This document shows positions 14,792-58,176 of a stretch of 64,000 nt of DNA, one piece after another. This DNA is from an uncultured Actinomycetes bacterium (lineage in GTDB: Bacteria; Actinomycetota; Actinomycetes; Streptosporangiales; Streptosporangiaceae). Position 1 is the stretch's first letter, and the number at the start of each line of letters is the position of its first letter. Where the stretch lies: positions 32,169-96,168 of the forward strand of contig CAVSZI010000013.1 in assembly GCA_963732345.1 (NCBI GenBank), given 5' to 3'. The notes beneath the pieces are model-generated. The model worked only from the letters and a program-made list of their open reading frames with translations. It was not told the origin of the DNA and ran no database searches. The position numbers and the translations under genes were made by a program.

Positions 14792-14793
14792 CC

Positions 14794-24884: not shown

Positions 24885-24908
24885 ACGACGTGGCCATCGG
24901 GGAGGGGA

Positions 24909-26728: not shown

Positions 26729-26736
26729 CGCCCGCG
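26684..26736. repeat. near-perfect 25-bp direct repeat, 28-bp period
   Basis: cagggaccagtcagtgacgcccgcg (26684-26708) and caggggccagtccgtgacgcccgcg (26712-26736), with 2 mismatches. It spans the stop codon (26726-26728) of the RsbW-like gene. Confidence 0.8.
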
Positions 26737-26855
26737 CGCCGGGGGACGCGGCAGCACACTGCCCGCCCATGAACCGGCTGCCTGCGCAGGCGGGCTTTAC
26801 CGCCCAGGCACCCCCATCCCGGGAAAGCTTAAGACACCTCCAGGGGGAGGATCAG

Positions 26856-35261: not shown

Positions 35262-36920
35262 ATGACGGTTACGACGTCGTATCCCGGGGTCTATATTCAG
35301 GAGCTCCCGAGCCTCGTCCATACGATCACGCCCGCGCCGACGTCTATCGCCGTATTCGTCGGCTACACCCACCCATTCCTCACCACGAGCTTCCGGACGA
35401 ACCCCAGTGACCCGACTCCGGCGACCCAGCTGTTCAGCTTCGCCGACTACCAGAGGAATTTCGGCGGCTTCTTCTCCAGCCCGTGGCTGCCGGACTACGT
35501 CGGCCAGGCGGTCTACCAGTTCTTCCTGAACGGGGGGCCGACCTGCTACGTGGTGGGCCTGCCGGCGCAGGACTACCTCACCGGGGGGCAGCCCGTCGAG
35601 GTCGAGGCGGCGAGCGTCAACGTCCCGTTCGGCGCCGACAGCGTCACCTTCACCGCGCGGCAGCTGGTGGGGACTGCGGCGGCGGGCATCCCGATGCAGG
35701 TGACGTTCTCCAATGTGAAGAATTCCGTCGCTGACGCGCCGAGCCCGACTCCGAGCGACCCCGGCGACATGGCCGACATCGTCATCTCCTACGGGACGAC
35801 GGTCGAGACGTACCGCAGGGTCCAGCTCGCGAATCTCGCGCCTACGTCGCCTCCGCAACCGCCCTCGCCGCTCCAGAACTCGAACCTCGTCACCGTTTCG
35901 CTGCCGGGCCCGGCCCCCGTGACATACCCGGCCGCGAGCACGTACACGCTCGCGTACAAGACGCCGCCGGCCGAGGGTTGGACGGTCATCAACCCGGTCC
36001 AATTCGGGCCGGTGTTCGCGGACTACGCCTCGCTCGACAAGGTGCCCATCTTCAACCTGCTGGCGACGCCTGGGGTCACTGACATTAGCGTGACCTCGGA
36101 AGCCGTTGCGTACTGCGAGCGCAAGCGGGCCTTCTACATCATGGACACCCCGTCGCCGTCGTCGCTGACTCCGCCTCTGACGACGCCGCCACAGCCGGAT
36201 CCGACCTGGAACGTCAACAACCTTGTGGGGGACACAGCGATCCTGTCGGAGTTCCCGGTCAGCACCAACGCGGCGCTCTATTACCCGTGGCTCGTAACGG
36301 CCGACCCGGTGACGGGGGCTCCATCCACGGCCCCGCCGAGCGGGTTCGTGGCCGGGATGTACGGCCAGGAGGACAACGCGCGCGGGGTCTGGAAGTCCCC
36401 GGCCGGCATCGAGACGGCCCTCCTCGGCACGACAGGCGTCGATCCGAACGGGGTCATGAACGATCCCCAGCAAGGGGTCCTCAACGAGCACGCCCTCGAC
36501 TGCCTCAGGCAGTTCCCGGGCATCGGCACCGTGATATTCGGCGCGCGGACGACGGCCGGCGCCGACGCCAACACCGCCCAGCAGCAGTGGAAATACGTCG
36601 CGGTGCGGCGGATGGCGCTGTTCATCGAGCAGACCCTCTACGCCAACCTCACCTGGGCCGTTTTCGAGGGGAACGCCACACCGCTGTGGAACGCCCTCAC
36701 CCAGGAGGTCACGGCGTTCATGCTCGGCCTGTTCCGCCAGAACGCCTTTGCCGGGGACACGCCGAGCCAGGCGTTCCTGGTGCAGTGCGACGCGACGACG
36801 ACCACCGCGACGGACGTGGCGAACGGCAGAGTCAACATCCTGGTCGGCTTCGCCCCGCTCGTCCCGGCGGAGTTCGTCATCGTCCAGATCGCGCAGCTCG
36901 CGGGCCAGGCACAGAGCTAG
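35262..36920 (+). CDS. contractile tail sheath protein
   Basis: ATG after AGGAGGGG. N-terminus MTVTTSYPGVYIQELPS and C-terminal LRQFPGIGTVIFGARTT...KYVAVRRMALFIEQ are hallmarks of phage/CIS sheath proteins. Confidence 0.9.
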   Translation: MTVTTSYPGVYIQELPSLVHTITPAPTSIAVFVGYTHPFLTTSFRTNPSDPTPATQLFSFADYQRNFGGFFSSPWLPDYVGQAVYQFFLNGGPTCYVVGLPAQDYLTGGQPVEVEAASVNVPFGADSVTFTARQLVGTAAAGIPMQVTFSNVKNSVADAPSPTPSDPGDMADIVISYGTTVETYRRVQLANLAPTSPPQPPSPLQNSNLVTVSLPGPAPVTYPAASTYTLAYKTPPAEGWTVINPVQFGPVFADYASLDKVPIFNLLATPGVTDISVTSEAVAYCERKRAFYIMDTPSPSSLTPPLTTPPQPDPTWNVNNLVGDTAILSEFPVSTNAALYYPWLVTADPVTGAPSTAPPSGFVAGMYGQEDNARGVWKSPAGIETALLGTTGVDPNGVMNDPQQGVLNEHALDCLRQFPGIGTVIFGARTTAGADANTAQQQWKYVAVRRMALFIEQTLYANLTWAVFEGNATPLWNALTQEVTAFMLGLFRQNAFAGDTPSQAFLVQCDATTTTATDVANGRVNILVGFAPLVPAEFVIVQIAQLAGQAQS

Positions 36921-36929
36921 GGGACCATC

Positions 36930-37439
36930 ATGGGCAAGATCTTCCCTGCCAACCTGAACCGCTACGACCCGTACAAGGCGTACCGGTTCCTCGTCTACTT
37001 CGGCAAGAGCACGACACCCGTCGCCGCGGTGAGCAAGGTCGGAGCGATCAAGCGCTCGTCCGACGTGATCGATTACAGCGAGGGCGGCAACGCCATCATC
37101 CTGAAGGGGCTCGGGCGCACCAAGTACGAGCCGATCACGCTCGAGCGGGGGATCACCCAGGACACGGACTTCGCCACCTGGGCCAACTACGCCCAGGTCC
37201 TCGACCAGGGTGCCCCGAACACGTCGCTCGCGAACCTGCGCCAGGAGGTCAGCATCGTCCTGCTGGACGAGGAGGCCCTGCCGGTGCTGCGGTACCTGGT
37301 CCACCGCGCCTGGGTATCGGAGTTCCAGGCTCTCCCCGATCTCGACGCGGGCGGCAACACCATCGCGATCGAGACCATCAAGATGGAGAACGAGGGCTGG
37401 GAGCGGGATCTCACACTCGCCGAGCCGACGGAGAAGTGA
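36930..37439 (+). CDS. CIS tail tube protein (T4 gp19-like family)
   Basis: YDPYKAYRFLVYFGKSTTPVAAVSKVGAIKRSSDVIDYSEGG...YEPITLERGIT...IAIETIKMENEGWERD fits the conserved phage-tail-region tube family. Confidence 0.85.
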   Translation: MGKIFPANLNRYDPYKAYRFLVYFGKSTTPVAAVSKVGAIKRSSDVIDYSEGGNAIILKGLGRTKYEPITLERGITQDTDFATWANYAQVLDQGAPNTSLANLRQEVSIVLLDEEALPVLRYLVHRAWVSEFQALPDLDAGGNTIAIETIKMENEGWERDLTLAEPTEK

Positions 37440-37442
37440 CCC

Positions 37443-38210
37443 TTGCTGCCCGTCAGTGGCATGGCGCTGGCCGTGCGCGAGCCAACCGGTGAGGACGAGC
37501 TCTTCGTGGTCGAGACCGCGGCGGCACCGCTGCCGGCGGTGCTCGGCCTGGCGCGTCGCGTCGCCAGTACCGCCACAGACGGCCCGCTCGACTGGAGCAG
37601 CCTCCCCGCGGCCGATCTCGACGCCGCCGCACTCGTGATCCGGCAATCCTGGATCGGCGACGCGATCCGCACGGACGCCAGATGCGCCGGGCCGGACTGC
37701 CAGGAACGGATCGACGTGAGCTTCGGCATCGGGGACTACATCTCCCACCATCGGCCGCGACAGCCACGCGGTGTCACCGATGCGCCCGGCGCGGGCTGGT
37801 TCTCACTGGCCGGGGTGGCCGTCCGCTTCCGGATCCCGACCGTCGCCGATCTCCTCGCGGCGGTGTCCGGTGACCGGCCGACGGAGATACTCTCCGGCCG
37901 GTGCGTCGACGCTGCCGAGATATCGTCGGCGCTCGCCCGGCGCCTGGACCGCGCGCTCTCCGCCCTCGCGCCGAGCCTCCACGACCTCCTCGGCGGGAAC
38001 TGTCCCGCCTGCGGGCACGAGGTGACGATGCGTTTCGACCCGCTCGCCTACACGCTCGCCGAGCTGCGCAACGCCTTCTCCGGCATCCACCGGGAGACGC
38101 ACGCGCTCGCCGCCGCCTACGGATGGCCGGAAGAAGTGATCCTCGCGCTCCCCCGGGCACGGCGCCAGCGGTACGCGGCGATGATCGCCGACGAGCGGCC
38201 GGCCGCATGA
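37443..38210 (+). CDS. CIS-associated hypothetical protein with putative zinc ribbon
   Basis: TTG lies 3 nt after the tube stop (alt ATG 37461). Cys pairs CAGPDC and CPACGH. It sits between the tube and tape-measure-position genes. No family name recalled. Confidence 0.5.
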
Positions 38211-39904
38211 GGGCCCGGATCCCGTACCTGGCCCGGCTGGCCCGGCAGGCCGGAGGAACGGCCACGCTGCTGCCGCCTCGCCTGCCCTTCGCCGGCGATA
38301 CCGACACGGCGGTGCTCTCGCCGGGCCGCGACGACTCCCCGCGGCGACGCGCCGGGGGGGCCGACGAAGGACGCCTCCCCCGCGCCCTCCCGCCCTCGGA
38401 TGCGGCTGAAGAGTCGCCGGCGCAGCCGGGGGCCGCCTTCCCGCGCGGCGCCGGCGCACATGGGGCCGGCGCACATGGGGCCGGCGCACATGAGCTCGGC
38501 GCACATGAGCTCGGCGCACATGAGCTCGGCGCACATGAGCTCGGCGCACATGAGCTCGGCGCACATGAGCTCGGCGCACATGAGCTCGGCGCACATGAGC
38601 GCAGCGCACATGGGCCCGATACTCCCGGTGCCCCCGGTGCCCCCGGTACTCCTGGTGCCCCCGGCGGCTCCGCCGCACTGACACCCGGTACAGGCGTCCC
38701 AGCGCTCCCCGTCCCCGCCGCCGCCGCCGGACCGGCACCCCGCCCGGGCGTCCCAGCGCTCCCCGTCCCCGCCGCCGCCGCCGGACCGGCACCCCGCCCG
38801 GGCGTCCCAGCGCTCCCCATCCCCGCCGCCGCCGGACCGGCACCCCGCCCGGGCGTCCCAGCGCTCCCCGTCCCCGCCGCCGCCGCCGGACCGGCACCCC
38901 GCCCGGGCGTCCCTGCGCTCCCCGTCCCCGCCGCCGCCGCCGGACCGGCACCCCGCCCGGGCGTCCCTGCGCTCCCCGTCCCCGCCGCCGCCGCCGGACC
39001 GGCACCCCGCGCAAGCTTTCCGGCGCCGCCCGCCCCCGCCGCCGCGCGGGCCATGACCGCGGGTGTCCCGGCGACGCCCGGTGGCCTGAGCGTGCCCGGA
39101 CCGCCGGATGCCGGGTCCCGCTCGTCGCCCGCCGCCCGCGCCGGGTCCCCCCGGGCCGCGGGTCCTGTCTCAGTGACTCCGGTGCGCGCGGACCCAGCCG
39201 CGCCACCGGTGACGCCGCCCTCCAGCAGCTCGCGACCTGCGGGCGACGCCGCGCGGGCACAGCCGCCGGGATCATGGACAAGCACGTTGCGGGGAACGCC
39301 CGTCGGTCTGCCCCAGGCGACCGAGTTGCTGCCGGTGACCGGCGAGACCGACCGCCGGGCCGGGGCCGCATCACGGCCCGGGGCCGCCGCCCCGGTCCCC
39401 GGCCCAGGACCGGCCGCCACCGCCGGCCCGCCCCATGGCCCGTCCCGGACCGAGACCGGCCTCCCGGCGACACCGCCCCCCGGGCCAGCCGCCACCGCCA
39501 GCTCACATCAGGGCCCGCGCAAGACCGAGGCGGCCATCACGGCGACGCCGGGCGGCCGGAACGCCGCCAATCAGGAGCGCTCCGGCGAGCCGATGGTGGT
39601 CCGCGATCTCCAGCCGCCTCCCGCCCCGGCTCCCCGTCCGATCGCGATGCCCGGCCCAGAGCCGGGCGAGCCGCACCAGAAGCCGCGCGCTTCCGGGCCG
39701 CCCCGCGTATCGATCGGCACGATCGAGGTCACCGTCCTCCCGCCGGCTCCGCCGGTTCCGCCTGCTCCCCCGGCTCCCGGGATCCGGCCTCCGGCGCAGG
39801 CGGCGCGCCGCTGGACGCGCCCTCCGTCCCTGTTCGCCGCGACTGCGGGTGCCGGCCGGCGGCGGGACGGGCTCCGCCGCTGGTACGGGACCGCGCAGGG
39901 CTGA
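38207..39904 (+). CDS. Pro/Ala-rich repeat protein in the tail-length (tape-measure) position
   Basis: ATGA overlap with the upstream gene. 565 aa, dominated by Pro/Ala/Gly. The N-terminus ([14 protein letters not shown]) and C-terminus ([13 protein letters not shown]...[11 protein letters not shown]) are non-repetitive. It occupies the slot between the tube and cap genes where Afp14/Pvc14-type proteins sit. The assignment is positional only. Confidence 0.45.
38453..38617 (+). repeat. 11 x 15-bp in-frame tandem repeat ([10 protein letters not shown] units)
   Basis: ggcgcacatgagctc is repeated head-to-tail (7 identical GAHEL units from 38483, flanked by variant units). Confidence 0.9.
38693..39010 (+). 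repeat. 6 x 54-bp in-frame tandem repeat ([18 protein letters not shown])
   Basis: Units start at 38693, 38747, 38801 (51 bp), 38852, 38906 and 38960, and are nearly identical at nucleotide level. Confidence 0.9.
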
Positions 39905-39916
39905 CGGCGGCACGCG

Positions 39917-41212
39917 ATGACGCTCGACCTGTCGGCAGTGACCGACTCCCTGATCGGGCTGGTGAAGAGCCAGTGGACGACGGCGCCGATCTGGACCGAG
40001 GTCGGCGGGAGCCCGGCGGGCCCCACGTTCACGCCGAATTTCACGGGGCTGGCGCCGGACGCGGTGCGCCAGGAGCCAGGTCCGCAGCTGAGCATGTACC
40101 TCTACCACGTCGAGTCGGACAACGCCCGGGAGGCTCTGTTCTGGCAGCCGCAGATGGCCGGCGCCGCAACGGGCGAGCCGACGCGGTTCCTGCCGCTGGC
40201 GCTCGACCTGTACTACCTCCTGTCCGCGTATTCGGAGACGAGCTACACCGAGGAGCAGGAGGCGATGAGCGTGGCCCTGCGCATCTACCACGCCAGCCCG
40301 ATCGTGCGCAGCGATCCGGGGGCCGCCGCGCCCTGGGAGCTGACCCTCACCGTGGAGCACCGCTCGTACGACGAGCTGAGCCGGCTGTGGCAGGCGACCA
40401 CGACACCGCTGCGGATGTCCCTGGTGTACCGCGCCGCGGTCGTGTTCATCGACCCCGATCCGATGCCAGCGCCCGCGCCGGAGACCACGTCGTTCTCCGT
40501 GGACGCCAACCCCGTCCGGCCGCCAATCCCCGCGCCCGGCATTGGCGATTTTCCCGTCACCTTCGGTACGTTCCGCGAAGGCTCCTACGTGGGACCGACG
40601 GGTCAGGCGGTCCCGTTCGCGCAGTCGCCGGCGACCGTGGCGGCGGGCCAGACCGTCTGGCTCACGGGGTCGGATCTCGGCGCCCACGGCGTCTCGGACA
40701 GCGTGTACCTGCTCTCGCCAGCCGGCGGCGCCGAGGTAGACGTGACGGCGTGGGCGGTCGCCGCCGACTCGAGCGCTGCCAAGTTCGTGCTCCAGCTCCC
40801 GCAGGCCGCCGGAACGGCACCGGCCGGCGCCCCGGGCCCGGGCGTCTACCAGCTCCGCGCCGGAAGCGGCGCGCCGGGCTCGCCCGGCGCCACGCGGACC
40901 GGCTCGGTCCCCGTCAGCGTCGCCGCGTTGGTGGACCCCGCGGGAGGCCCGGTGCTGACTGGATCGGCCCCGTTCACGGTGCACGGAACGGGCTTCGTCC
41001 CGGGTACGACGGAGGTCCTCGTGGGCGCGGTGGCCCTGACCGATACGTCCGCGTCTGCCCCCGCGTCCCCGGGGCCGGGCGAGGTCAGCGTCGACGCGTC
41101 GGGCACGTCCTTCTCGTTCTCGCCGCCCGCCGGGGCCGCCGGTACGGTCGCGCCGGTGCGGGTCCGGGTGAACGGCATCGACTCGGACCCGGCCCTGTGG
41201 GTGACGCTGTGA
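39917..41212 (+). CDS. DUF4255 (Pvc16/Afp16-like) tail terminator/cap protein with C-terminal Ig-like extension
   Basis: MTLDLSAVTDSLIGLVKSQW...PQLSMYLYHVESDNA is the DUF4255 signature. The C-terminal half (VYQLRAG..., FTVHGTGFVPGTTEVLVG, VRVRVNGIDS) looks like IPT/TIG-type beta domains. Confidence 0.8.
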   Translation: MTLDLSAVTDSLIGLVKSQWTTAPIWTEVGGSPAGPTFTPNFTGLAPDAVRQEPGPQLSMYLYHVESDNAREALFWQPQMAGAATGEPTRFLPLALDLYYLLSAYSETSYTEEQEAMSVALRIYHASPIVRSDPGAAAPWELTLTVEHRSYDELSRLWQATTTPLRMSLVYRAAVVFIDPDPMPAPAPETTSFSVDANPVRPPIPAPGIGDFPVTFGTFREGSYVGPTGQAVPFAQSPATVAAGQTVWLTGSDLGAHGVSDSVYLLSPAGGAEVDVTAWAVAADSSAAKFVLQLPQAAGTAPAGAPGPGVYQLRAGSGAPGSPGATRTGSVPVSVAALVDPAGGPVLTGSAPFTVHGTGFVPGTTEVLVGAVALTDTSASAPASPGPGEVSVDASGTSFSFSPPAGAAGTVAPVRVRVNGIDSDPALWVTL

Positions 41213-43416: not shown

Positions 43417-43715
43417 GCCCGGCCGCCGGCGCGCAGGCCGGTGACGTCCACATCGACCGGCTGGCGCTGCGCGTGGCGGGCCTCGACGAGGACGCGGCGC
43501 GCGCGCTCGCCCGCCTCGTCGCCGAGGGCCTCGCGCCCGGCGTACTGCGGCCGGCCGGGCTGGCCGGCCTTGACGGCCTGCAGGTTGAGGTGAAAGCCAG
43601 TGCCGCCGACCAGGGCCGGCTGGACCTGCTGGCGCGGCGCATCGTCGACGAAATCGGCCGGGTGCTGGCGCGCGACCGGGTGTCGGGCGGCCCGGACGGG
43701 GAGGCGGTCCCGTGA
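43413..43715 (+). CDS. small CIS-associated hypothetical protein (100 aa)
   Basis: GTGA overlap with the ATPase gene. VHIDRLALRVAGLDEDAARALARLVAEGL. No family recognised. Confidence 0.5.
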   Translation: MSPAAGAQAGDVHIDRLALRVAGLDEDAARALARLVAEGLAPGVLRPAGLAGLDGLQVEVKASAADQGRLDLLARRIVDEIGRVLARDRVSGGPDGEAVP

Positions 43716-43748
43716 GCGACCCGGACGGGGAGGCGGTCCCGTGAGCGG
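43691..43748. repeat. 29-bp perfect-but-one tandem duplication across a gene junction
   Basis: cccggacggggaggcggtcccgtgagcga / cccggacggggaggcggtcccgtgagcgg. Each copy contains GGGGAGG plus GTGA. Copy 1 supplies the stop of 43413..43715, and copy 2 supplies the GTG of 43741..44463. Confidence 0.9.
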
Positions 43749-44463: not shown

Positions 44464-44479
44464 GAGCCGGAGGAACGTC

Positions 44480-44758
44480 ATGTTCGCAGCCGACAGCCGC
44501 TACCTGAACCAGCCGACCTACATCGTCGCGCTGCCCGACGGTACCCAGGTCACGGCCGTGGTCCCGGCGCCGCCGAATCCGGTGCCGCTGGTGGGCTACT
44601 ACCAGCGTGCCGGTGAGGGACGGCTCGACCTCGTCGCGGCGCAGTACCTCAACACGCCGACCGGATTCTGGCGGCTCTGCGATGCGAACAACTCCATGGT
44701 CGCGGGCGCTCTGGCCGCCCGCGCGCTCATCGGCATCCCGGCTGGGGGCCCAGGGTGA
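44480..44758 (+). CDS. LysM-like / tail protein X-like small protein
   Basis: ATG after GGAGGA. GEGRLDLVAAQYLNTPTGFWRLCDANNSMVAGALAARALIGIP follows the LysM-type pattern (..rLD.iA..y......w.i...N.......l..g..l.IP). Confidence 0.6.
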   Translation: MFAADSRYLNQPTYIVALPDGTQVTAVVPAPPNPVPLVGYYQRAGEGRLDLVAAQYLNTPTGFWRLCDANNSMVAGALAARALIGIPAGGPG

Positions 44759-45918
44759 GCGTGAAGATCCAGCTGAACATCGGCGGGACGCAGGCACCGG
44801 ACGCGTTCTACGACGCGGTCCAGCAGCTGGAGGTCGAGGAAAGCTCGGATCAGCCCGGCGCGCTGCTGCTGCGGCTGCCGGCGAACCGGACCTCCCACGG
44901 GGATCTCCAGTTCGTCGGGGACGGCACCTTCGAGCCGCAGACGAACATCGCGGTCACGGTCACCCCGGGGACGCCCGGCTCCCAGGCCCAGTGCATCTTC
45001 GACGGGTACGTCCTGTCCTGGCGGCTGCACCTGGACCGCGCGTCAACCTCGTCGACCATCGACGTGTGGGGCCAGGACGCATCGTGGCTGATGAACCTCG
45101 ACGACCACGTCCACGAATGGTCCGGCCAGACCGACGGAGAGGTCGCCAACGCGATCTTCGAGACGTACAGTTTCGCGCCCGCAGCCGGGAACACGGCCAA
45201 CGACTCCCCCAGCCACACTCCCGACGGGCACACGCTGTACCAGCGCGCGACGGATCTGCAGTTCCTGCGCGGCCTGGCCCGGCGCGGCGGGAAGCTGTGC
45301 CGGGTCGCCTGCACCGGCACCCCGGGCGCCCGGACCGGGTATTTCGTGACCCCGGCCGTCGACGGCCCGCCGGTGGCCACGATCTCCCTGGTCGATCCCG
45401 ACAGCTGGACGGTCGAGACCCTCGACTTCGACTGGGACGTCATGCGCCCGACCGAAGTGGATGCGAGCCAGGTCGACCTCACCCAGGCCGGCGGCACCGG
45501 CGCCGACGTGACCACCGGCACCAGCGGCCTCAAGCCGCTCGACGATCGCGACTACCCCACCTACCTCGGGCAGTCCTCCACGCTGGTGCTGACCGCACCG
45601 GCCGACGTGCCGGAGCTCAGCCAGCGCACGGCGGCTGTGCTGGCGGAGTCCGGCTTCTTCTCCCGCTGCGCCGGCGAAGCGGACGCGGACCGGATCGGCA
45701 CGATCCTGCGCGTCGGTGACGTCGTCACGATTGCGGGCGCCGGCCGCCTCCAGTCGGGGAACTGGCTGGTCTGGAACGTCCGGCACACGTTCTCGCTCGA
45801 CTCGTGGAAGATGAGCTTCACCCTCGTCCGCAACGCGATAGGCCCGCCGGGCGCTGGTGGCGCGCTCGCCTCCTTCGCCGCCGTGCTGGCGGGGCCCGCC
45901 GGGACGACGTCGCCGTGA
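44755..45918 (+). CDS. baseplate hub protein (phage late control gpD / gp27-like)
   Basis: GTGA overlap. ATDLQFLRGLARRGGKLCRV and C-terminal GNWLVWNVRHTFSLDSWKMSFTLVRN are typical of gpD-family hubs. Confidence 0.75.
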   Translation: MSVKIQLNIGGTQAPDAFYDAVQQLEVEESSDQPGALLLRLPANRTSHGDLQFVGDGTFEPQTNIAVTVTPGTPGSQAQCIFDGYVLSWRLHLDRASTSSTIDVWGQDASWLMNLDDHVHEWSGQTDGEVANAIFETYSFAPAAGNTANDSPSHTPDGHTLYQRATDLQFLRGLARRGGKLCRVACTGTPGARTGYFVTPAVDGPPVATISLVDPDSWTVETLDFDWDVMRPTEVDASQVDLTQAGGTGADVTTGTSGLKPLDDRDYPTYLGQSSTLVLTAPADVPELSQRTAAVLAESGFFSRCAGEADADRIGTILRVGDVVTIAGAGRLQSGNWLVWNVRHTFSLDSWKMSFTLVRNAIGPPGAGGALASFAAVLAGPAGTTSP

Positions 45919-46433
45919 CCACCGCCGACGACCGCGCGCTCGAGGACCTTCTCGAGCGGCTGCGCACCCGCTTCTACGGGAAGTACCGCGGCATCGTGTC
46001 GGCCGTCGACGCGTCCACGATGCGGATCAAGGCAAGGGTGCCATCCGTGCTCGGCGAGAAGGACACCGGCTGGTGCATGCCCTGCGTCCCCTACGCCGGA
46101 CCGGGCGTCGGCTTCGCGTTCCTGCCCGAAACGGGCAGCGGCGTCTGGATCGAATTCGAAGGCGGGGACGTGTCCTTCCCCATCTGGGTCGGCGGCTACT
46201 GGCGCCAGGGCGAGTTCCCGGCGGACGCGGCGGACCACGTGAAGGTGATCGTCACGAAAGCGCCGCACAAGTTCGAGCTGAACGACGACCAGGGCTCGAT
46301 CACGCTCTCGGATCCCAACGGCAACACGGTGACGCTGGACAGCTCGGGCATCACGCTCGCCAACGGCCAGTCGACGGTCGTGGTCAGCAGCTCCAGCGTG
46401 TCGGTGAACGACGGCGCCCTGGAGGTGCAGTGA
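45915..46433 (+). CDS. central spike protein (gp5/gpV OB-fold, VgrG-like)
   Basis: GTGA overlap. FYGKYRGIVSAVDASTMRIKARVPSVLGEKDTGWCMPCVPYAGPGVGFAFLPETGSGVWIEFEGGDVSFPIWVGGYW, then a short beta-helix-like SITLSDPNGNTVTLDSSGITL. Confidence 0.75.
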   Translation: MTTADDRALEDLLERLRTRFYGKYRGIVSAVDASTMRIKARVPSVLGEKDTGWCMPCVPYAGPGVGFAFLPETGSGVWIEFEGGDVSFPIWVGGYWRQGEFPADAADHVKVIVTKAPHKFELNDDQGSITLSDPNGNTVTLDSSGITLANGQSTVVVSSSSVSVNDGALEVQ

Positions 46434-46825
46434 TGACGATCGCCCGGCAGGATTTCGCGTTCCCGTTCCGGATCGACCCGGCGTCGCAGCAGACCGCGCA
46501 GACCGGCTACGCCGCCCACGTCGACCAGATGGTCTACCAGCTGCTGCTCACCAGCCCCGGCGAGCGGGTCAACCTCCCGCAGTTCGGCTGCGGGCTGCGA
46601 TCGCTGGTGTTCGCCCCGAACTCCGACGCCCTGGCGGCGACCGTCCAGCTGCGCGTCATCCAGGGCCTGAACCAGTGGCTGGCCGGCATCGTGAACGTGG
46701 TCAGCGTCGTGGTGGGCGCCGGCCCGGGAGGGGCGGTCCTGGAGCCGGGGACACTCGAGGTCACGGTCACCTATACCCTCGTGGAGACCCAGACGAGCCA
46801 GGCCGTGACAGTGGCGGTCGCATGA
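46433..46825 (+). CDS. baseplate wedge protein (GPW/gp25 family)
   Basis: TGATG junction. FAFPFRIDPASQQTA...LLLTSPGERVNLPQFGCGLRSLVFAPN is the gp25/GPW signature. Confidence 0.85.
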   Translation: MTIARQDFAFPFRIDPASQQTAQTGYAAHVDQMVYQLLLTSPGERVNLPQFGCGLRSLVFAPNSDALAATVQLRVIQGLNQWLAGIVNVVSVVVGAGPGGAVLEPGTLEVTVTYTLVETQTSQAVTVAVA

Positions 46826-51848: not shown

Positions 51849-54348
51849 GGTCGACGACGGCTACGACGCCTACTACGCGGAGCGGCTCTGGCAACTGCTC
51901 CCGGCGGTCTACCGCACGGCCGACACCGACAGCTTCACCGCCCCCGGGCCGCTGCGGGAACTGCTCAACCGCATCGGCGCGCAGGTGGCCGTCGTCCGGC
52001 GGAGCATCGACCGGCTGTGGGCGGACCAGTCGATCGAAACATGCGACGACTGGGTCATCCCCTACATCGGCGACCTCCTCGGCACCAGCCTGGCCGGCCA
52101 CCTCGGCGCGCGCGCCCACCGCCTCGACGTCGCCAAGACGATCTACTACCGCCGCCGCAAGGGCACCCTCCAGATCCTGGAGGAGCTTGCGCTCGACGTC
52201 ACGGGCTGGACCGCGCACGTCGTCGAGGGCTTCCGGCGCCTCGCCCGCACCCGGCACGGCCTGGACCCGGCCATCGGGCCGGCTACCTTCCCGCAGGCGG
52301 GCGCGGCCGGCGCGGCGCGACTGCTGCAGGTCGAGGGCCTGACCGGCCCGCTGACCGGCGGGCCGGCCGGCGGATTCGCGGACCTGCGATCCGCGCACGG
52401 CGCCGCGCTCGCCAACACTGCCTTCGACGAGAGCTTCCACACCGCCGACGTCCGGGCCGGCCGCGGCGCGGCCGGACACTACCGGATCCCCGAGCTTCTG
52501 GTGTTCCTGTGGCGGCTGACCAGCTTCCCCGTCGTGGCCGGGACGCCCGTCGCGGTCGCCGGGCACGCGGGCCAGTACGTGTTTGACCCGACCGGCCGCC
52601 AGATCCCGCTCTTCCTGCCTCCCGCGCCCGACCTGGGCGATTTCTCCGGGCCCCGCGCCTCGGTCCGCGAGTGGCAGGTTCCCGGCCCGCTGACGAGCTC
52701 GCTGGAGACCGCGCTCACCGACACCGGGACATCCCCGCCGCCGCCCGTCCGGCCGCCTTATCCCGCCTATCCCGACGCCGGCATCCCGGCCCGCTACGGC
52801 CTGGGGGGCGACTGGCAGCTGGCGTCGATCTGGCCCGAGACCGGCCGGTTCGCGGCCGCGCCCGCTTCCCCCGCCGAGCCGCTCACGGTCGACTACCAGT
52901 ACGGGTTCTCGTCCACGATCGGCGCCGGCCCCTACGACCGCGACCTGCTCGGGAACCCCCCGGCGGTGGTCGGCACGGAGACTCCCGTGACCGGCGGAAC
53001 GGGGCTTGATGCAGCGCTCACCGCGGCCGGGACCACCGGAACCGTCACGATCGGTGACTCCCGCACCTACGTGACACTGGCCGACGTCGGCTCGAGCTCA
53101 GAACCGATCGTCTCGCTGCTCGTGCGCGCCGGCCCAAGCATGCGCCCGGTCCTGCGGCCAGTCACCCGAGCGGCGCCGTGGGTCTTCACCGGGGGCGGCG
53201 AGGCACAGCTCGTCCTGGACGGCCTCACCGTCTGCGGATGCGACATCGTGCTGCGCGGCTCATTCGACACGGTGCGCCTGACCGCCTGCACGATCGACCC
53301 CGGCACCGCCGGACCAGGCTCGCCGCCCCTGGCCATCGCGGCCGACGGCGTGCCCCTCGCCCCGGGCCGGATCTTCGTCGAGGCCGATCCGGCCGCCCCG
53401 CCGGGCGAGGGAGGAACAATCCGCCAGCTCCTCATCGACCACTGCATCGCCGGCCCGGTCCGCACTCGCTCCGGCGGGGCGGTCGAGACGCTCACGATCA
53501 CCGACGGCATCGTCCAGGGCCTTCCGCCGACGACCGGCACGGCCGTTACCGCCGGCGACGTCTTCGACCCGCCGCTGCTGGCCACGAGCCTCCTGTCCGC
53601 CGACCCGCTGGCGGCAGCGCTGCTGGCGGCGATGCCGGGAAGGATCGCGCCCGCCCTGCGCGCGTACCGGGCCAGGCCCCTGGCCAGGCAGGAGGACGGC
53701 CTCCCGCGCGGGGTCCTCGCCGGGCTCAGCGCGCTCGTCGACGGGCCGTCGCTGTACGACGCGGCTCTCTTCACCAACGTCCATCTCAGCCCGGGCCTGC
53801 TCGCGCTCACAGCCGAGGCCGGAACGCTCGATCCGGCCCGGCTCGCCACGCTCAACCGCGGCCTGCTCGGCGAATCGTTCCCGGTCGCCCTGGGCGTGGC
53901 CGCCCTGGCGGTAGCGGACGCGACGATCCAGCTCACCCGGGTGACCGTGCTCGGGCGCATCGCCGCGCACCGGCTCGTGGCGAATGACTCGATCCTGGCT
54001 GACTTCGCCGCCATCGACGATGTCCAAGACGGCTCCGTTCGGTTCAGCGCCTACGCCAGCGGCAGCGCCCTCCCCCGGCAGTACCAGTCGGCCTCGATCC
54101 CGGCCGGCGCGCCGATCTTCACGAGCGACTCGTACGGGCAGCCGGGATACGCCCAGCTGCTCGAGACCGCCGACGCTGCCATCTCCGGCGGCGCGACGGG
54201 TGCGTCCATCTCCTCAGGTGCCGGGACAGGCTCGGAGATGGGCGCTTTCTCCGCAGACCTGAACCCCCTCAAGGAGCAGGGCCTGCTCGTCAAGTACGCC
54301 GAGTACATGCCGCTCGGTCTCACGCCCGTGATCATCCATGTCACGTGA
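51841..54348 (+). CDS. phage tail protein (P2 gpI-like baseplate/fibre-attachment domain), large
   Basis: GTG start with an 8-nt overlap. YYAERLWQLLPAVYRTAD...LRELLNRIGAQVAVVRRSIDRLWADQSIETCDDWVIPYIGDLLG matches the conserved N-terminal 'phage tail protein' domain. The remainder is unassigned. Confidence 0.7.
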   Translation: MTEVDDGYDAYYAERLWQLLPAVYRTADTDSFTAPGPLRELLNRIGAQVAVVRRSIDRLWADQSIETCDDWVIPYIGDLLGTSLAGHLGARAHRLDVAKTIYYRRRKGTLQILEELALDVTGWTAHVVEGFRRLARTRHGLDPAIGPATFPQAGAAGAARLLQVEGLTGPLTGGPAGGFADLRSAHGAALANTAFDESFHTADVRAGRGAAGHYRIPELLVFLWRLTSFPVVAGTPVAVAGHAGQYVFDPTGRQIPLFLPPAPDLGDFSGPRASVREWQVPGPLTSSLETALTDTGTSPPPPVRPPYPAYPDAGIPARYGLGGDWQLASIWPETGRFAAAPASPAEPLTVDYQYGFSSTIGAGPYDRDLLGNPPAVVGTETPVTGGTGLDAALTAAGTTGTVTIGDSRTYVTLADVGSSSEPIVSLLVRAGPSMRPVLRPVTRAAPWVFTGGGEAQLVLDGLTVCGCDIVLRGSFDTVRLTACTIDPGTAGPGSPPLAIAADGVPLAPGRIFVEADPAAPPGEGGTIRQLLIDHCIAGPVRTRSGGAVETLTITDGIVQGLPPTTGTAVTAGDVFDPPLLATSLLSADPLAAALLAAMPGRIAPALRAYRARPLARQEDGLPRGVLAGLSALVDGPSLYDAALFTNVHLSPGLLALTAEAGTLDPARLATLNRGLLGESFPVALGVAALAVADATIQLTRVTVLGRIAAHRLVANDSILADFAAIDDVQDGSVRFSAYASGSALPRQYQSASIPAGAPIFTSDSYGQPGYAQLLETADAAISGGATGASISSGAGTGSEMGAFSADLNPLKEQGLLVKYAEYMPLGLTPVIIHVT

Positions 54349-54383
54349 TCATCGCCCCGCCGGGGCGGGAGAGGGAGACGGCC

Positions 54384-56942
54384 ATGGCCGGCGACCGCGC
54401 ACGAGTGAGCTACGACCCGAGCCGCAAGTGGCGAGGGGTCATAGCCCAGCAGGGCCGGGTGACCGTCGAAGCGGACTGGAACGAGGCCGCGACGATCGGC
54501 GAGGAGCGCGACCGGCACGTGACACTCGACGTCGTCGGCCCCGTCGGGACACCCGACGACGGCTACGCCGTCACCGCTGTCCGGGCGACGGGTGAGCATT
54601 CAGCATCGGCGCCGGACCATCTCACGATCGGCAGGGGCACGCTCTACCTCGGTGGTGAGCGGCTCGACCTCGACGAGCAGGTGCATTACAGCGCGCAGCC
54701 CGACTGGCTCGACCACTCGACGGATCCGCTGTGGAAGGCCCCAGGGGCGCAGCACGGGAGGCACGAGCTCGTCTACCTGCTGGCGACCGAGCAGGAAGTG
54801 TCAGCCGTCGAGGACCCGGCGCTCGCCGACGTCGCCCTCGGCGGCCCGGACACCATGCAACGCCGGCGTATCCTCCAGCGTTTCGTGCGCTACCCGAGCG
54901 AATCGGGCCGCTGCGAGGGCTCGCGGAGTGCGCTGGACAGGTCCCTCGCCGACCACGGGCTGCAGCTCGACGCGGCGTCGATGATGGCCGGCTCGACCGC
55001 GAGGCTGAAGGTGTCGTTCCCGGACATTCCGGCCACCCCGAACGCCGGCCAGCCCGTGCCGACCGGCGCCTATCTGGGCGCCGAGAACCAGATGATCCGG
55101 GTCATGGTCACGGGCATCGATCACGCAACGCACGAGCCGACCATCGTCTGGGGATTCGATGACGCCTCCCTCCTCTACCGGGTCCTGACGGCGACGCCGG
55201 ACTCCGGGAGCACCACGCTCACGCTCGCCAGCGCGCCCGTGGACAGCTACCACTACCCGGCGCAGGGCCAGGCGGTGGAGTTGCTGCGCGATGCGGTCAG
55301 GCTCACCAGTACCGACTACATCGCGTCACCGGCCGGCTATGTCTCGACCCTTACCGGCGCCTACGATCCGGCCAGCAGGAACCTCGTGCTCTCCGCCGGC
55401 CCGGGTGAGCCCCCGGGCGGTTACCCGCCCGATTACCTTTCCCCCGAAAGGACCCCGCAGCTCTACCTGCGCGTGTGGCAGGCGACCGCACATGCTCGGC
55501 CGGGCAAACCGGTCCCGCTCGGCGACACCGGCGTCGCCGTCACGCTTACCTCGCACAACCACCGCTTCCACGTCGGCGACTTCTGGCGCTTCGCGCTGCG
55601 GCCGATCCAGCCGGCGATCGTCTATCCGGAACGCTACCTCCGCGCTCCCCAGCCCCCCGACGGCCCACGGACCTGGGCCTGCCCGCTAGCGGCGCTGACC
55701 TGGGAGGAGGAGCGCGCGAAAGTGTCACGCTGCATCCCGCGTTTCTCCGGCCTTACGGAGACCGCCGGACGGGGCGGCTGTTGCACGGTGGACGTCGGGC
55801 CGGAGGATATCGACGACGGAGCCGCCCTGCAAAGCCTCCTGGCCGGCTACGCGCACCAGGGACCCATCACCATCTGCCTGCAGCCGGGTACCTACACGCT
55901 CCGCGCGCCTCTCGTGCTCGGACCGGAACTCGATGGCATCACGCTGCAGGCCTGCCGCGAGGAGGTGGTCCTGCGGGCTCCGGAACAAGCGGGGGATGAG
56001 TTCGTCCTCGGGCTCATCGCCGTCCGGGATGCGACCTCGGTCACGATCCGGGGCGTAGAGCTGGTCCCACCGCAGGTCAGGTTCTCCCCCGCCGAACGCT
56101 CGTTCTCCGGCATGCACCCGCGCAACCACGACCTCCTCAGGGAGTTCTCCCGCGGGCTGCACGTCGCGATCGGCATCTCCGTCCACAACTCCGCTGGCCT
56201 CGCCGTGCAGAACTGCACCTTCAGCCACCCGGATCCGGGCCGCCACCCGGATCCGGGCCGGGCGAACAGCTTCAGCGCCGGGATCTTCGCGACCGGGGTC
56301 ATCGAGGATGTCGATATCACGGGATGCACCTTCCAGCCCGTCAGCCCGCCGGCGGCCGGGCACCGGCACCGGCACCGCCGGCGACGGTCCGCGGACGGGG
56401 ATCGGCCGGTCCCATGGCATGATCTCGCGACGGGCGAACGGGCCGGCTCCGCGCACCAGGTGAGCTTCGGATACCTCCAGGTGCCGGCCTCCGGGCCCGA
56501 CCACCGGGAGATCAGGCCGCACCGGCTCGACGACGCGACGATCGAGCGGTGCCTGTTCCTGGGCATGACGGTCCCGGCGCTGGTCATGGCCCACCTCGGC
56601 ACGTTGCGTGTTAGCCGGAACACGGTCCGCGGCTGCTACGGCGGCTTCTGGTTCGTCTCGCTGGCCGATGCGGAGCTGTCCGTCATGTTCGACCGGATCG
56701 CGGTCGGCGACGCCGACGCGTACCGGGAGCTCTCCGGCAACCGCGGGGGCGCCGCGCTGCTGGACCGGGTCTTCGTGCTCGCGACCGCGATCGGCCAGGT
56801 GCTGCCTGTGGCCCATCCGGCCGGCGGCCGCCTTTCGGCCGGCCGGTTCCGCCGGCCCGACGAGGCACTGCTGGCGCCGCGCCCGCCAGATGTTCAGCGA
56901 CTTCTACACGCAGGCTGCGGAGTCAGCCGAGCAGCCGGATGA
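54384..56942 (+). CDS. DUF6519-like N-terminal domain protein with right-handed beta-helix repeats
   Basis: ATG after GGGAGAGGGAGA (alt GTG 54345, which forms a GTGA overlap). MAGDRARVSYDPSRKWRGVIAQQGRVTVEADWNE matches the DUF6519 N-terminus. Later parallel beta-helix-type repeats appear (SVTIRGVELV, HNSAGLAVQNCTFSH, VDITGCTFQP, LRVSRNTVRGCYGGFWFVS). The 3' end probably continues into 56890..58176 by frameshift. Confidence 0.6.
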   Translation: MAGDRARVSYDPSRKWRGVIAQQGRVTVEADWNEAATIGEERDRHVTLDVVGPVGTPDDGYAVTAVRATGEHSASAPDHLTIGRGTLYLGGERLDLDEQVHYSAQPDWLDHSTDPLWKAPGAQHGRHELVYLLATEQEVSAVEDPALADVALGGPDTMQRRRILQRFVRYPSESGRCEGSRSALDRSLADHGLQLDAASMMAGSTARLKVSFPDIPATPNAGQPVPTGAYLGAENQMIRVMVTGIDHATHEPTIVWGFDDASLLYRVLTATPDSGSTTLTLASAPVDSYHYPAQGQAVELLRDAVRLTSTDYIASPAGYVSTLTGAYDPASRNLVLSAGPGEPPGGYPPDYLSPERTPQLYLRVWQATAHARPGKPVPLGDTGVAVTLTSHNHRFHVGDFWRFALRPIQPAIVYPERYLRAPQPPDGPRTWACPLAALTWEEERAKVSRCIPRFSGLTETAGRGGCCTVDVGPEDIDDGAALQSLLAGYAHQGPITICLQPGTYTLRAPLVLGPELDGITLQACREEVVLRAPEQAGDEFVLGLIAVRDATSVTIRGVELVPPQVRFSPAERSFSGMHPRNHDLLREFSRGLHVAIGISVHNSAGLAVQNCTFSHPDPGRHPDPGRANSFSAGIFATGVIEDVDITGCTFQPVSPPAAGHRHRHRRRRSADGDRPVPWHDLATGERAGSAHQVSFGYLQVPASGPDHREIRPHRLDDATIERCLFLGMTVPALVMAHLGTLRVSRNTVRGCYGGFWFVSLADAELSVMFDRIAVGDADAYRELSGNRGGAALLDRVFVLATAIGQVLPVAHPAGGRLSAGRFRRPDEALLAPRPPDVQRLLHAGCGVSRAAG

Positions 56943-58176
56943 GATCGATGCCCTCTTCAGGAACCGGGACATCGCCGGATGGGAAACGCCCGAGCCGGAG
57001 GAGGACAACGGACCGGGCAGCCCCCGCGAAGGGGACCGAGACCGCGGCAGGCCGCTGTCCCTGCGGCTGGATCTCGGTGACTGCCAGGTCGACGGCATCA
57101 TCGCCGATTCCTATTGCGGCGCCGGTCTGCTGGTCGCCGACTTCACGGCAGGACCAGGGTCGGCCCTCATCCACGACAACCGGATCCGGAGCCGCTTCCC
57201 CGGTGGTGAGACCGTTTTCGTCGGAGGGGTCAGGGAGGCCTGCGTCACGGGAAACGTCGTGGCGAACGAGGTCGACCGCCAGCGGAGGAACTGGGAAAGC
57301 CACAGCATGGGGCTGCGCCCGGCGACCACGCCGCCCGCGGTGGCCATTACCGGCAACGTCTTCATTGGCCCGCCCCGTCTCCCCCGGCGCCACCACCTGC
57401 CGGATGATGCGCACCTCGACAACTGGCGGCTGCTGAACACGGTGATCGATGACGCCGGATGGGCCGAACAGCGGGACCGGCCCGAATCCGGGCCGGCGCA
57501 AGGCGAGTGGGCCGAACCGGAGGAGCGGGCCGAACCGGAGGAGCGGGCCGGACCGGAGGAGCGGGCCGGACCGGAGGAGCGGGCCGGACCGGAAGAGCGG
57601 GCCGGACCGGAAGAGCGGGCCGAACCGGAAGAGCGGGCCGGACCGGAAGAGCGGGCCGAACCGGAAGAGCGGGCCGAACCGGAAGAGCGGGAGGAGCGGG
57701 CCGAATGGGAAGAGCGGCCCGGACCGGAAAAGGGGCCCGGACCGGAAGAGCGGGCCGAACCGGAGGAGGGGCCCGGACCGGAAGAGCGGGCCGGACCGGA
57801 AGAGCGGCCCGGATGGGAGGACGTGGTCCAGACCGGCGTCATCCCATCCGTCCCCGCGCGATCACCGCTCCGGCTCCGGGTCACCCGGGGCGCTGAGGCG
57901 GGGCGGACGTTCGATCTCCATCAGGGTGACCTGACCATAGGGCGCCGGTGGATGTCGAAGATCCGGCTCGAGGACCCCTCGGTCTCCCACCGTCACGCCA
58001 TGCTGCGCGTGCGCGACCAGAGTGTGACGATCGAGGACCTGCACTCCACCAACGGAACCAGGGTCAATGCCATGGACATCCAGCAGGAGACCCCTCTCGC
58101 GCCCGGTGACCAGATCGACGTGGGCGGCGTGCACCTGGTGGTCGAGCGAGCCGAGCCGGCAAGTCCGGGCGAGTGA
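56890..58176 (+). CDS. beta-helix / acidic PEER-repeat / C-terminal FHA-domain protein (probably 3' part of the preceding gene)
   Basis: Frame of ORF 56608..58176; first plausible ATG is 56890, with no SD. Beta-helix repeats continue (ALIHDNRIRS, CVTGNVVANEV, AITGNVFIG), followed by about 17 x (A/P)(E/G)PEER units. The C-terminus is then LRVTRGAEAGRTFDLHQGDLTIGRRWMSKIRLEDPSVSHRHAMLRVRDQSVTIEDLHSTNGTRVN, a canonical FHA domain. Confidence 0.7.
   Translation: MFSDFYTQAAESAEQPDEIDALFRNRDIAGWETPEPEEDNGPGSPREGDRDRGRPLSLRLDLGDCQVDGIIADSYCGAGLLVADFTAGPGSALIHDNRIRSRFPGGETVFVGGVREACVTGNVVANEVDRQRRNWESHSMGLRPATTPPAVAITGNVFIGPPRLPRRHHLPDDAHLDNWRLLNTVIDDAGWAEQRDRPESGPAQGEWAEPEERAEPEERAGPEERAGPEERAGPEERAGPEERAEPEERAGPEERAEPEERAEPEEREERAEWEERPGPEKGPGPEERAEPEEGPGPEERAGPEERPGWEDVVQTGVIPSVPARSPLRLRVTRGAEAGRTFDLHQGDLTIGRRWMSKIRLEDPSVSHRHAMLRVRDQSVTIEDLHSTNGTRVNAMDIQQETPLAPGDQIDVGGVHLVVERAEPASPGE
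57511..57826 (+). repeat. ~17 x 18-bp in-frame tandem repeat (AEPEER/AGPEER)
   Basis: gccgaaccggaggagcgg and close variants are repeated head-to-tail from 57511, with one 9-bp irregularity. Confidence 0.9.

Follow-up and report, generated by a model that had tools for sequence, protein, structure and literature searches.

A 64,000-nucleotide stretch of contig CAVSZI010000013.1 (the window, to which positions refer unless a related locus is named) was analysed for a contractile injection system (CIS) that an earlier reading of its letters, here called the original prediction, had placed at 35262-58176. As a whole, and as judged from the genes, the locus is best explained as a chromosomal island that encodes a phage-tail-derived CIS; this explanation is given a probability of about 0.85. 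The particles may be used inside the producing cell, docked there by an FHA domain at the tip of the tail fibre. The island spans 31.9-59.4 kb and consists of 16 plus-strand CIS genes (g1-g16), at least two minus-strand genes and two upstream accessory genes. The host is an uncultured soil actinomycete, probably related to the Streptosporangiaceae, and the closest named homologues belong to Streptosporangiaceae and Kineosporiaceae metagenome-assembled genomes (MAGs).

Identification of the CIS island

Genes were called by third-position GC (GC3) in a window of ~69% GC, in which 35262-58176 forms a single unbroken plus-strand coding run of high GC3. ATGA/GTGA stop/start overlaps were seen at 38207, 41209, 43413, 44755, 45915, 46822 and 49269, a TGATG overlap at 46433 and an 8-nt overlap at 51841. 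All of these had been listed in the original prediction of a co-directional block; a further GTGA overlap at 54345 was absent from its list. The predicted count of 17 genes was lowered because a single fibre gene is divided between open reading frames (ORFs) 16 and 17. The predicted limits were retained for the plus-strand core and abandoned as bounds of the cluster, which extends to 31872 and 59382.

Families were assigned by Pfam scans; weak products (ten) were also searched against NCBIfam and PHROGs, and orthologue profiles were searched against the PDB. The sheath, tube, DUF4255, AAA, base_V, gp25, Baseplate_J, DUF6519 and FHA families were matched in Pfam, as had been foreseen. The predicted tube-initiator-like protein (g8) and gpD hub (g10) stayed below threshold in Pfam (CIS_tube and Phage_GPD) and were recovered when re-tested against the PDB with profiles built from 19-20 orthologues. 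The core set of extracellular CIS (eCIS) and CIS was found complete: sheath, tube, DUF4255 cap, AAA+ ATPase and an Afp7/8/9/11-type baseplate, with no head or integrase genes. The synteny of g1-g16 is kept in 21 loci from Actinomycetota, Acidobacteriota and one Microcoleus cyanobacterium. Each component has more than 2000-3000 homologues, and this CIS lineage is very abundant in soil metagenomes. Rfam returned no RNA family in the window, and a convincing transmembrane (TM) helix was found in none of the cluster proteins.

All structural proteins are homologues of phage-tail proteins and a viral contig collection contains one homologous fragment, as would suit a prophage tail module or an R-type tailocin. 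That origin is nevertheless extremely improbable. No capsid, portal, terminase, integrase, holin or endolysin gene was found by Pfam across 1-35 kb, 58-64 kb or the CIS block, which covers 35 kb upstream and 6 kb downstream; the flanking capsid, portal or terminase genes that the original prediction had named as the mark of a prophage are missing from the 64-kb window. The locus encodes a DUF4255 cap and a dedicated AAA+ ATPase, 9 of the 10 tested products have no PHROGs match (only g14 matches baseplate wedge families), the R-type pyocin sheath is a very weak match (7e-7) to g1, and the same headless gene set recurs in three phyla. No relative of the sheath occurs in the viral contig collection, and the single match there (to g15) is another syntenic CIS baseplate fragment. 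Among ~50 flanking ORFs scanned with Pfam were genes for an AMP-ligase, a thioesterase, a permease, two deacetylase-family proteins, a methyltransferase, SpoIIE/anti-sigma-kinase/STAS proteins, DUF2332, DUF2252, TenA, Usp and YbjQ; the sole trace of a mobile element is a DDE transposase fragment at 5337-5894 (+), 30 kb away. The full sheath/tube/baseplate/cap/AAA+ set between purely cellular flanks bears out the original prediction of a non-prophage CIS in a high-GC actinomycete.

Subtype assignment

In the published scheme of six eCIS subtypes (Chen et al. 2019, PMC6899500), two afp11 copies are found only in IIa and IIc, separate gp27 and gp5 ORFs in place of one afp8 in IIa, IIb and IIc, and divergent afp12/13 genes in IIa and IIb, with PAAR lacking only in IIb (PMC6899500). 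All four gene-content features of IIa were found in the window, namely two Baseplate_J genes, the split g10/g11, g15 together with a DUF6519 fibre, and DUF4280. By gene content alone, the locus would belong to eCIS lineage II and fits subtype IIa. It departs from two rules of subtype IId (a single afp11/Cis11 and a contiguous VgrG-like Cis8), and in the place after the baseplate genes, where IId has no fibre and a CisA-type bitopic membrane protein, a DUF6519 fibre is encoded. The Streptomyces-type CIS of the original prediction was consequently set aside: two Baseplate_J genes, a split spike and a fibre are not those of IId.

A Tme-type system (S. davawensis group) was ruled out, as no giant DUF4157 tape-measure-related effector with TM helices lies upstream of the baseplate genes; the genes found there encode the AAA+ ATPase and then a 100-aa protein. 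The CIS of the haloarchaeon Halogeometricum borinquense belongs to clade IIa, with two cis11 genes, and is membrane-anchored (PMC11566945; PDB 9EZM); it is the sole characterized IIa member.

Tail fibre gene

The last plus-strand CIS gene, g16, lies in two pieces in the window: ORF16 (54345-56942) and ORF17 (in the frame of 56608-58176), with the GC3 signal changing from the frame of the former to that of the latter near 56780-56880. In relatives, the ORF16 region and the N-terminal ORF17 region are contained within one ORF of 1100-1300 aa. Frame 2 of the window reads ...GRFRRPDEALLA and frame 0 goes on RARQMFSDFYTQ..., and a Streptosporangiaceae MAG locus (L004) has GRLRIPDAALMARARDTFSGLWAQ unbroken across the same junction. 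One surplus C is present in 'ctggcgCcgcgcc', at ~56875-56877, and the split into two ORFs is ascribed to this 1-nt insertion. The repaired fibre is 1263 aa long and aligns end to end with the intact metagenomic homologue P0121 (83% identity, 1237 aa), the junction being exact. Its true start is MAGDRARV at 54381. On this comparison of sequences, ORFs 16 and 17 are one gene, and the DUF6519/beta-helix protein and the FHA protein that had been listed separately in the original prediction merge into a single fibre with FHA as its tip.

The surplus C may be a sequencing or assembly error, since many genes in related long-read assemblies are broken in ways that resemble assembly indels (for example a split AAA gene and a fused gpD and spike gene in locus L026). 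The remaining 15 structural ORFs are intact over ~22 kb, with a strong coding signal and translational coupling kept. Programmed ribosomal frameshifting at the junction of ORF16 and ORF17 was also considered and ruled out: the ORFs of the closest homologues are unbroken and encode the same junction peptide.

Pfam matches of the fibre were to DUF6519 (1e-16), FHA (4e-16) and Yop-YscD_cpl (4e-19). DUF6519 is 'eBAP5', one of the five domains by which eCIS tail fibres are anchored to the baseplate at their N-terminus, and eBAP5 fibres usually continue with beta-helix regions and then surface-binding tips (PMC12923769). An AlphaFold2 model of the intact homologue P0123 (76% identical; mean predicted local distance difference test (pLDDT) score 73) shows the anchor, then a confident beta-helix (~470-760), a helical segment and another beta-helix (~875-1000), followed by a linker that is disordered (1010-1046) and a C-terminal domain of pLDDT >90. 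In the window fibre the linker is ~120 residues long, having been lengthened by an 18-bp x17.7 tandem repeat that encodes EPEERA (57505-57813) and is specific to this sequence.

FHA domain at the fibre tip

The tip domain of P0123 was compared with known structures using Foldseek and gave TM-scores of 0.86-0.93 to FHA folds, in the order FhaA/Rv0020c, then GarA/OdhI and EmbR. The fibre FHA matched M. tuberculosis FhaA (3poa) with a TM-score of 0.90 and 38% identity. The domain is present in 24 of the 120 closest protein clusters and ends no more than 8 residues from the C-terminus in 21 of these; the other clusters end in TIG/Ig-like domains, in PF20144 or in nothing. A Gly-Arg motif occurs in all 24 FHA homologues, and Ser-x-x-His and Asn-Gly in most, with some substitutions. 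All three phosphothreonine-binding motifs (GR, SxxH and NG) are present in the window fibre, P0121 and P0122. Judged by the models, the fibre tip is a canonical FHA fold and a putative phosphothreonine-binding domain. An FHA tip does not appear in the published catalogue of eCIS receptor-binding domains, either in its text or in its supplements (PMC12923769), and the FHA-tipped fibre is apparently a recurring variant that is undescribed.

Another match of the fibre FHA is EmbR, a SARP regulator of M. tuberculosis that unites BTAD and FHA in one protein. In the window, a BTAD regulator and the FHA-tipped fibre are encoded by neighbouring genes. This parallel may be a coincidence or a hint of shared kinase input.

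Structural genes

The genes of the island are listed in Table 1.

Table 1. Genes of the CIS island, with window positions, strand and basis of assignment
Gene	Product	Position	Strand	Basis
GT2	Multi-domain family-2 glycosyltransferase	31872..34223	+	Pfam Glycos_transf_2 8e-38, Glyco_tranf_2_3
Methyltransferase	Methyltransf_24 S-adenosylmethionine-dependent methyltransferase	34220..34837	+	Pfam Methyltransf_24 3.6e-14; ATGA overlap with GT2
g1	Contractile sheath (Cis2/Afp2-like), 552 aa	35262..36920	+	Pfam Phage_sheath_1, Phage_sheath_1C, just above threshold
g2	Inner tube (Cis1/gp19-like), 169 aa	36930..37439	+	Pfam Phage_T4_gp19 6e-32
g3	Conserved Zn-ribbon-like protein, 255 aa	37443..38210	+	Four invariant cysteines
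g4	Pro/Ala-rich repeat protein in tape-measure slot, 565 aa	38207..39904	+	Position, conserved C-terminus
g5	Tube/sheath terminator cap (Cis16/Afp16), Ig-like C-terminal extension	39917..41212	+	Pfam Pvc16_N (= DUF4255) 1e-24
g6	AAA+ ATPase (Cis15/Afp15-like), N-terminal winged-helix	41209..43416	+	Pfam AAA 4e-28, WHD 1.5e-7
g7	Small conserved protein, 100 aa	43413..43715	+	Conserved in actinobacterial loci, weakly in Microcoleus
g8	Tube-initiator/baseplate hub adaptor (Cis5/Cis7, Afp7-like), 240 aa	43741..44463	+	Pfam CIS_tube 3.6e-5, below threshold
g9	Conserved baseplate-associated protein, 92 aa	44480..44758	+	In all 21 loci, 20 invariant positions
g10	gp27/gpD-like hub, N-terminal half of split VgrG (Cis8)	44755..45918	+	Pfam Phage_GPD 6e-6, below threshold
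g11	gp5-type OB-fold spike, C-terminal half of split VgrG	45915..46433	+	Pfam Phage_base_V 2e-21
g12	gp25-like sheath-initiator wedge protein (Cis9)	46433..46825	+	Pfam GPW_gp25 1e-13
g13	Baseplate_J wedge protein 1 (Cis11a/gp6-like), 816 aa	46822..49272	+	Pfam Baseplate_J 2e-10
g14	Baseplate_J wedge protein 2 (Cis11b), 859 aa	49269..51848	+	Pfam Baseplate_J 1e-5
g15	Large baseplate-periphery protein, Cis12/gpI position, predicted beta-helix core, 835 aa	51841..54348	+	Conservation, position
g16	Tail fibre: DUF6519/eBAP5 anchor, two beta-helix segments, EPEERA linker, C-terminal FHA	54381..58176	+	Pfam
DUF4280	DUF4280 (PAAR-like) spike-tip protein	58194..58571	-	Pfam DUF4280 9e-25
BTAD	BTAD-domain (SARP/AfsR-like) regulator	58579..59382	-	Pfam BTAD 1e-16

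A ribosome-binding site, GAGGAGG, lies upstream of g1. In a sequence search of the PDB, the best solved match of the sheath was Halogeometricum Cis2 (9EZM, 2e-50), which covered the C-terminal half only, and S. coelicolor Cis2 (8BKY) matched over the full length (2e-45); PVC, Afp, tCIS and AlgoCIS sheaths matched more weakly. The best PDB match of the tube g2 was the Anabaena tCIS tube (7b5h). The Zn-ribbon label that had been proposed for g3 agrees with its cysteines C81, C86, C187 and C190, which are invariant across 15 orthologues; g3 gave a weak Pfam match to T4_baseplate (4e-4) and none in the PDB (profile, E <= 1), NCBIfam or PHROGs.

The Pro/Ala-rich protein that had been predicted in the tape-measure slot, g4, is real, and its C-terminal ~120-170 aa are conserved in actinobacterial loci. 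It has no family match in Pfam, NCBIfam or PHROGs and no TM helix. Products in this slot are 270-460 aa long in relatives. The ~200 aa by which g4 is longer are attributed to in-frame tandem repeats at 38452-39045 (15-bp x10.7, encoding GAHEL, and 54-bp x6.6) that are specific to this sequence. It is a candidate internal ruler or lumen protein. ARAGORN called a tRNA-Ile(GAT) inside g4, at 39331-39401 (-), where Rfam has no tRNA at its gathering threshold; the call is probably a false positive of very GC-rich repeat DNA. The cap g5 gave a weak Pfam match to TIG (2e-3) and no match in a search of the PDB, and g7 matched no family in Pfam, NCBIfam or PHROGs.

In the baseplate, the orthologue profile of g8 retrieved 9rce_H, an Afp7-like 'peptidoglycan-binding protein' of a Salmonella eCIS (4e-4). 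A 29-bp perfect tandem duplication (x2.1) at 43687-43747 spans the stop of g7 and the start of g8 (GTGA). The two genes overlap by GTGA in relatives; the duplication has displaced the g8 start here, leaving a gap of 25 nt and both ORFs intact. The g10 profile retrieved N-terminal halves of VgrG (9rce_F, 6e-8; AlgoCIS 7aef_q, 3.5e-7), and NCBIfam gave a weak VgrG_rel match. Against the PDB, g13 matched S. coelicolor Cis11 (9gtp_1K, 6e-18). For g14, matches were found to TIGR02243 (9e-42, below its cut-off) and to a PHROG baseplate wedge family (6e-20); an in-frame 21-bp x3.5 repeat (SAPPDNP) at 50044-50116 is specific to this sequence.

Two labels of the original prediction were not confirmed. 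For g9, called LysM-like, no match was found in Pfam, NCBIfam, PHROGs or a PDB profile search (E <= 1). For g15, called gpI-like, there is a weak match to TIGR02242 (E = 0.004) and a precomputed Tail_P2_I match in one homologue; it has more than 3000 homologues, no Pfam family and, with an orthologue profile, no PDB match at E <= 1. In the AlphaFold2 model of g15 (pLDDT 61.7), confidence is confined to a central beta-rich region, and the conserved N-terminal domain is below 50. Foldseek returned nothing for it at E <= 1e-3, and a resemblance to beta-helix lyases and tailspikes was weak and non-significant.

Accessory genes and island boundaries

Two minus-strand genes to the right of the fibre had been overlooked in the original prediction. 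The DUF4280 gene is convergent with the main operon, 18 nt past the fibre stop. Its product is 71% identical to the copy in locus L022, and the gene is equally placed in L001, L002, L004, L007, L016, L017, L019, L021, L022, L030 and L031. Also on the minus strand, 4 nt upstream of the DUF4280 gene, is the BTAD gene. Genes of this kind accompany the CIS lineage as neighbours in L007, L021, L025, L027, L028, L030 and L031; in L025, L027 and L028 they sit immediately upstream of the sheath gene. The BTAD protein is likely the cluster activator.

In L027 (5151-8776), DUF4280 is flanked by two eCIS_core proteins. In L022, DUF4280 is followed at 13976-15232 (-) by the gene of a Cys-rich protein of 418 aa, which belongs to no Pfam family and has a long tail of D/R/H dipeptide repeats. 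These genes next to DUF4280 in L022 and L027 are candidate cargo.

On the left side, a GT2 gene also adjoins the sheath gene in L025 and L026, and homologues of the methyltransferase lie upstream of the sheath gene in L026 and, as an NPCBM and Methyltransf_24 protein, in L025. A minus-strand 'hypothetical' at 34286-34924 was replaced by the plus-strand Methyltransf_24 gene. Alignment with contig L026 gave 98.3% identity over 27224-30537 and 87-89% from 31820 on, a zone that includes GT2, the methyltransferase and the CIS; the two accessory genes thus diverge together with the CIS island and apart from the 98% flank. Between the identity zones, L026 (3573-7094) has a 348-aa LuxR-like gene and a 458-aa eCIS_core (DUF4157) gene, in place of which the window (30512-31820) has a 67-aa LuxR-like remnant and a polysaccharide deacetylase exported by the twin-arginine route. 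From the sequences, this boundary looks like the swap of a cargo/regulator module at a recombination hotspot. The deacetylase was ruled out as cargo by its twin-arginine export signal.

Other genes of the window

A partner-switching module at 24849-27227 encodes a GAF-SpoIIE (PP2C) phosphatase, a HATPase_c_2 anti-sigma kinase and a STAS anti-anti-sigma protein, and is followed by genes for a 275-aa unknown and a multi-pass membrane protein; a STAS gene is also found near the CIS in L025. The module is probably not part of the island, as it sits in the 98%-identical flank. Genes at 16012-24550 encode two histone-deacetylase-family proteins, an alpha/beta hydrolase, a flavin monooxygenase-like protein, an AlaDH/PNT-like dehydrogenase and a methyltransferase, and may form a small-molecule or polyamine modification locus. 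A 503-aa ORF at 9728-11236 (+) with a very strong coding signal (GC3 0.91) and without a Pfam family adjoins an amino-acid permease gene. At 2178-3110 (+) a transglycosylase-like (Rpf-type) domain protein is encoded, of a kind typical of Actinobacteria, within a region (1-7 kb) of lower GC3 and patchy coding.

Proposed mechanism and alternatives

By analogy with Afp, PVC, AlgoCIS and the CIS of S. coelicolor (CIS-Sc), the baseplate (g8-g15, with the split spike and the DUF4280 tip) would assemble around the spike. The wedge would plausibly consist of the two Baseplate_J paralogues and g15, as in the two-Cis11-plus-one-Cis12 wedge of CIS-Sc. The baseplate would nucleate both tube and sheath: the tube protein g2 would polymerise on the initiator and around the Pro/Ala-rich g4, the sheath g1 would polymerise in the extended form, and the cap g5 would terminate the particle, with assembly assisted by the AAA+ ATPase g6. 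A signal received through the fibres would lead to contraction of the sheath, by which tube, spike and DUF4280 tip would be driven through a membrane. The particle would be assembled and used inside the producer, where the FHA domain would dock onto a Thr-phosphorylated, probably membrane-associated protein. This docking logic would resemble CisA-dependent firing in Streptomyces or membrane anchoring of the haloarchaeal IIa system.

Intracellular assembly with FHA docking is, by this analogy, somewhat favoured over a released eCIS because no lysis gene and no TM helix were found, the closest systems act inside their producers and FHA reads cytoplasmic phosphothreonine. Several results weigh against it. 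Sibling fibres with TIG domains or no tip domain form the pattern expected for extracellular receptor-binding fibres; no Ser/Thr kinase or phosphatase adjoins the FHA-type loci at the three loci examined; the window has no cargo or effector that could be recognised, and tblastn found in it no DUF4157/eCIS_core gene such as the siblings L026 and L027 carry. The frameshift, if real, would also remove the distal beta-helix and FHA from the anchored part of the fibre. A classical extracellular eCIS of the Afp/PVC kind, released by lysis and using FHA as an interchangeable receptor-binding module for a surface epitope, would accommodate the swapping of TIG/Ig-like and absent tips, the description of DUF6519/eBAP5 as anchoring fibres of extracellular CIS whose C-terminal binding domains vary, a PAAR-like tip and split VgrG suited to puncturing a target envelope, and the eCIS_core cargo genes of sibling loci. 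It is considered possible and rather unlikely. The closest relatives of the tip are cytoplasmic actinobacterial FHA proteins that read threonines phosphorylated by intracellular kinases, and FHA is missing from the published receptor-binding repertoire; there is no holin, endolysin or other release function in or beside the island, and both of the characterized systems that come closest (haloarchaeal IIa and CIS-Sc) act inside the producer.

Inactivity or decay of the locus in this genome, with a real fibre frameshift and the loss of a LuxR-type regulator and DUF4157 cargo, would be in keeping with the 1-nt insertion in g16 and with the longer LuxR-like and eCIS_core genes retained by L026 next to its 98% left flank, where the window has the remnant and the deacetylase. 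It is less likely again than extracellular release: the other 15 structural ORFs have kept their coding signal and coupling, a single indel may be a sequencing error among related assemblies full of indel-like breaks, and the ~12% difference from L026 throughout the island is that of an allelic variant and not of a decayed copy.

FHA-tipped eBAP5 fibres could, tentatively and with more doubt than belief on our part, define a class of phospho-signal-gated CIS, in which particles assembled in the cytoplasm would dock by six flexibly linked fibres onto a phosphothreonine-bearing, probably membrane-bound protein, with both docking and firing licensed by Ser/Thr-kinase signalling in stress or development. 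Such a class would covalently fuse the roles of CisA and Fha/TagH, and its siblings with TIG domains or without tips may re-target the same machine.

CIS of Gram-positive bacteria are abundant and barely understood, only the Streptomyces IId systems having been studied. The way in which Streptomyces particles reach the membrane and come to fire is still being worked out, and CisA was identified only in 2025. The IIa-like lineage is common in soil metagenomes and apparently has no characterized bacterial member. As a plain gene cluster, the island is one more eCIS-type locus of a catalogued superfamily, and its notable part is the FHA-tipped fibre. The only known job of FHA is to read phosphothreonine; if the domain is functional, it would offer a concrete link from Ser/Thr-kinase signalling to CIS targeting and a handle on the docking partner. 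A beta-helix fibre whose C-terminal module is swappable and held on a flexible tether would be a natural scaffold for re-targeting.

Comparison with known systems

The H. borinquense CIS, which resembles type VI secretion systems (T6SS), shares with the window the top-scoring solved sheath, two cis11 genes, Cis12/Cis13-like proteins, the lack of an obvious tape measure and a non-phage nature; it acts from inside its producer. It differs in its archaeal host and in the N-terminal and middle sheath domains, which cannot be aligned with those of the window sheath. Its anchoring has been attributed to a 6-TM protein, Hbor_38620, whereas the window island (31.9-59.4 kb) has no membrane protein; a multi-pass membrane protein is encoded at 27899-29275, ~2.6 kb outside the island. 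The haloarchaeal system also lacks an FHA-tipped fibre and carries, in an inter-spacing region, toxin-immunity pairs that are absent from the window.

CIS-Sc (IId; 8BKY, 8BL4, 9GTP; PMC10066040, PMC12237407) shares the actinomycete host, the DUF4255 cap, the AAA+ ATPase and the lack of a lysis cassette, with sequence similarity over the full-length sheath (2e-45) and in Cis11 (6e-18). In both systems the baseplate genes are followed by one for the factor through which the particle is connected to the place where it acts: CisA in CIS-Sc and the fibre in the window. In CIS-Sc, Cis11 is single and the VgrG-like Cis8 contiguous, a tail fibre and a typical tape measure are lacking, and the bitopic membrane protein CisA is used together with the single-TM effectors Sco4256-4258; the window, in contrast, has two Baseplate_J proteins, a split spike, a DUF6519-FHA fibre and DUF4280, and neither TM effectors nor a bitopic membrane protein.

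With Afp, PVC and AlgoCIS (lineage I, Ib) the window shares the core parts Afp1/5, 2-4, 7, 8, 9, 11, 15 and 16 and the contraction mechanism, and their sheaths match the window sheath at 1e-31 to 1e-39. Unlike these systems, the window has its cap and ATPase genes in mid-operon, its sheath gene is single, its spike split and its Afp11 duplicated; its fibre is of the eBAP5/beta-helix type and not adenovirus-like, and no toxin cassette lies downstream.

Published eBAP5 fibres (PMC12923769) have the same N-terminal DUF6519 anchor, pectin-lyase-like beta-helix and gene position directly after the baseplate genes. Their tips are lectin, hemagglutinin and other surface-binding folds, whereas the tip in the window is FHA. 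The Fha/TagH proteins of the T6SS and the FhaA, GarA and EmbR readers share the FHA fold and most of the canonical phosphothreonine-binding residues. The T6SS and mycobacterial proteins are separate scaffolds or regulators; in the window FHA is fused to a structural fibre, with no kinase nearby. In the T6SS, the FHA protein couples assembly to Ser/Thr-kinase signalling.

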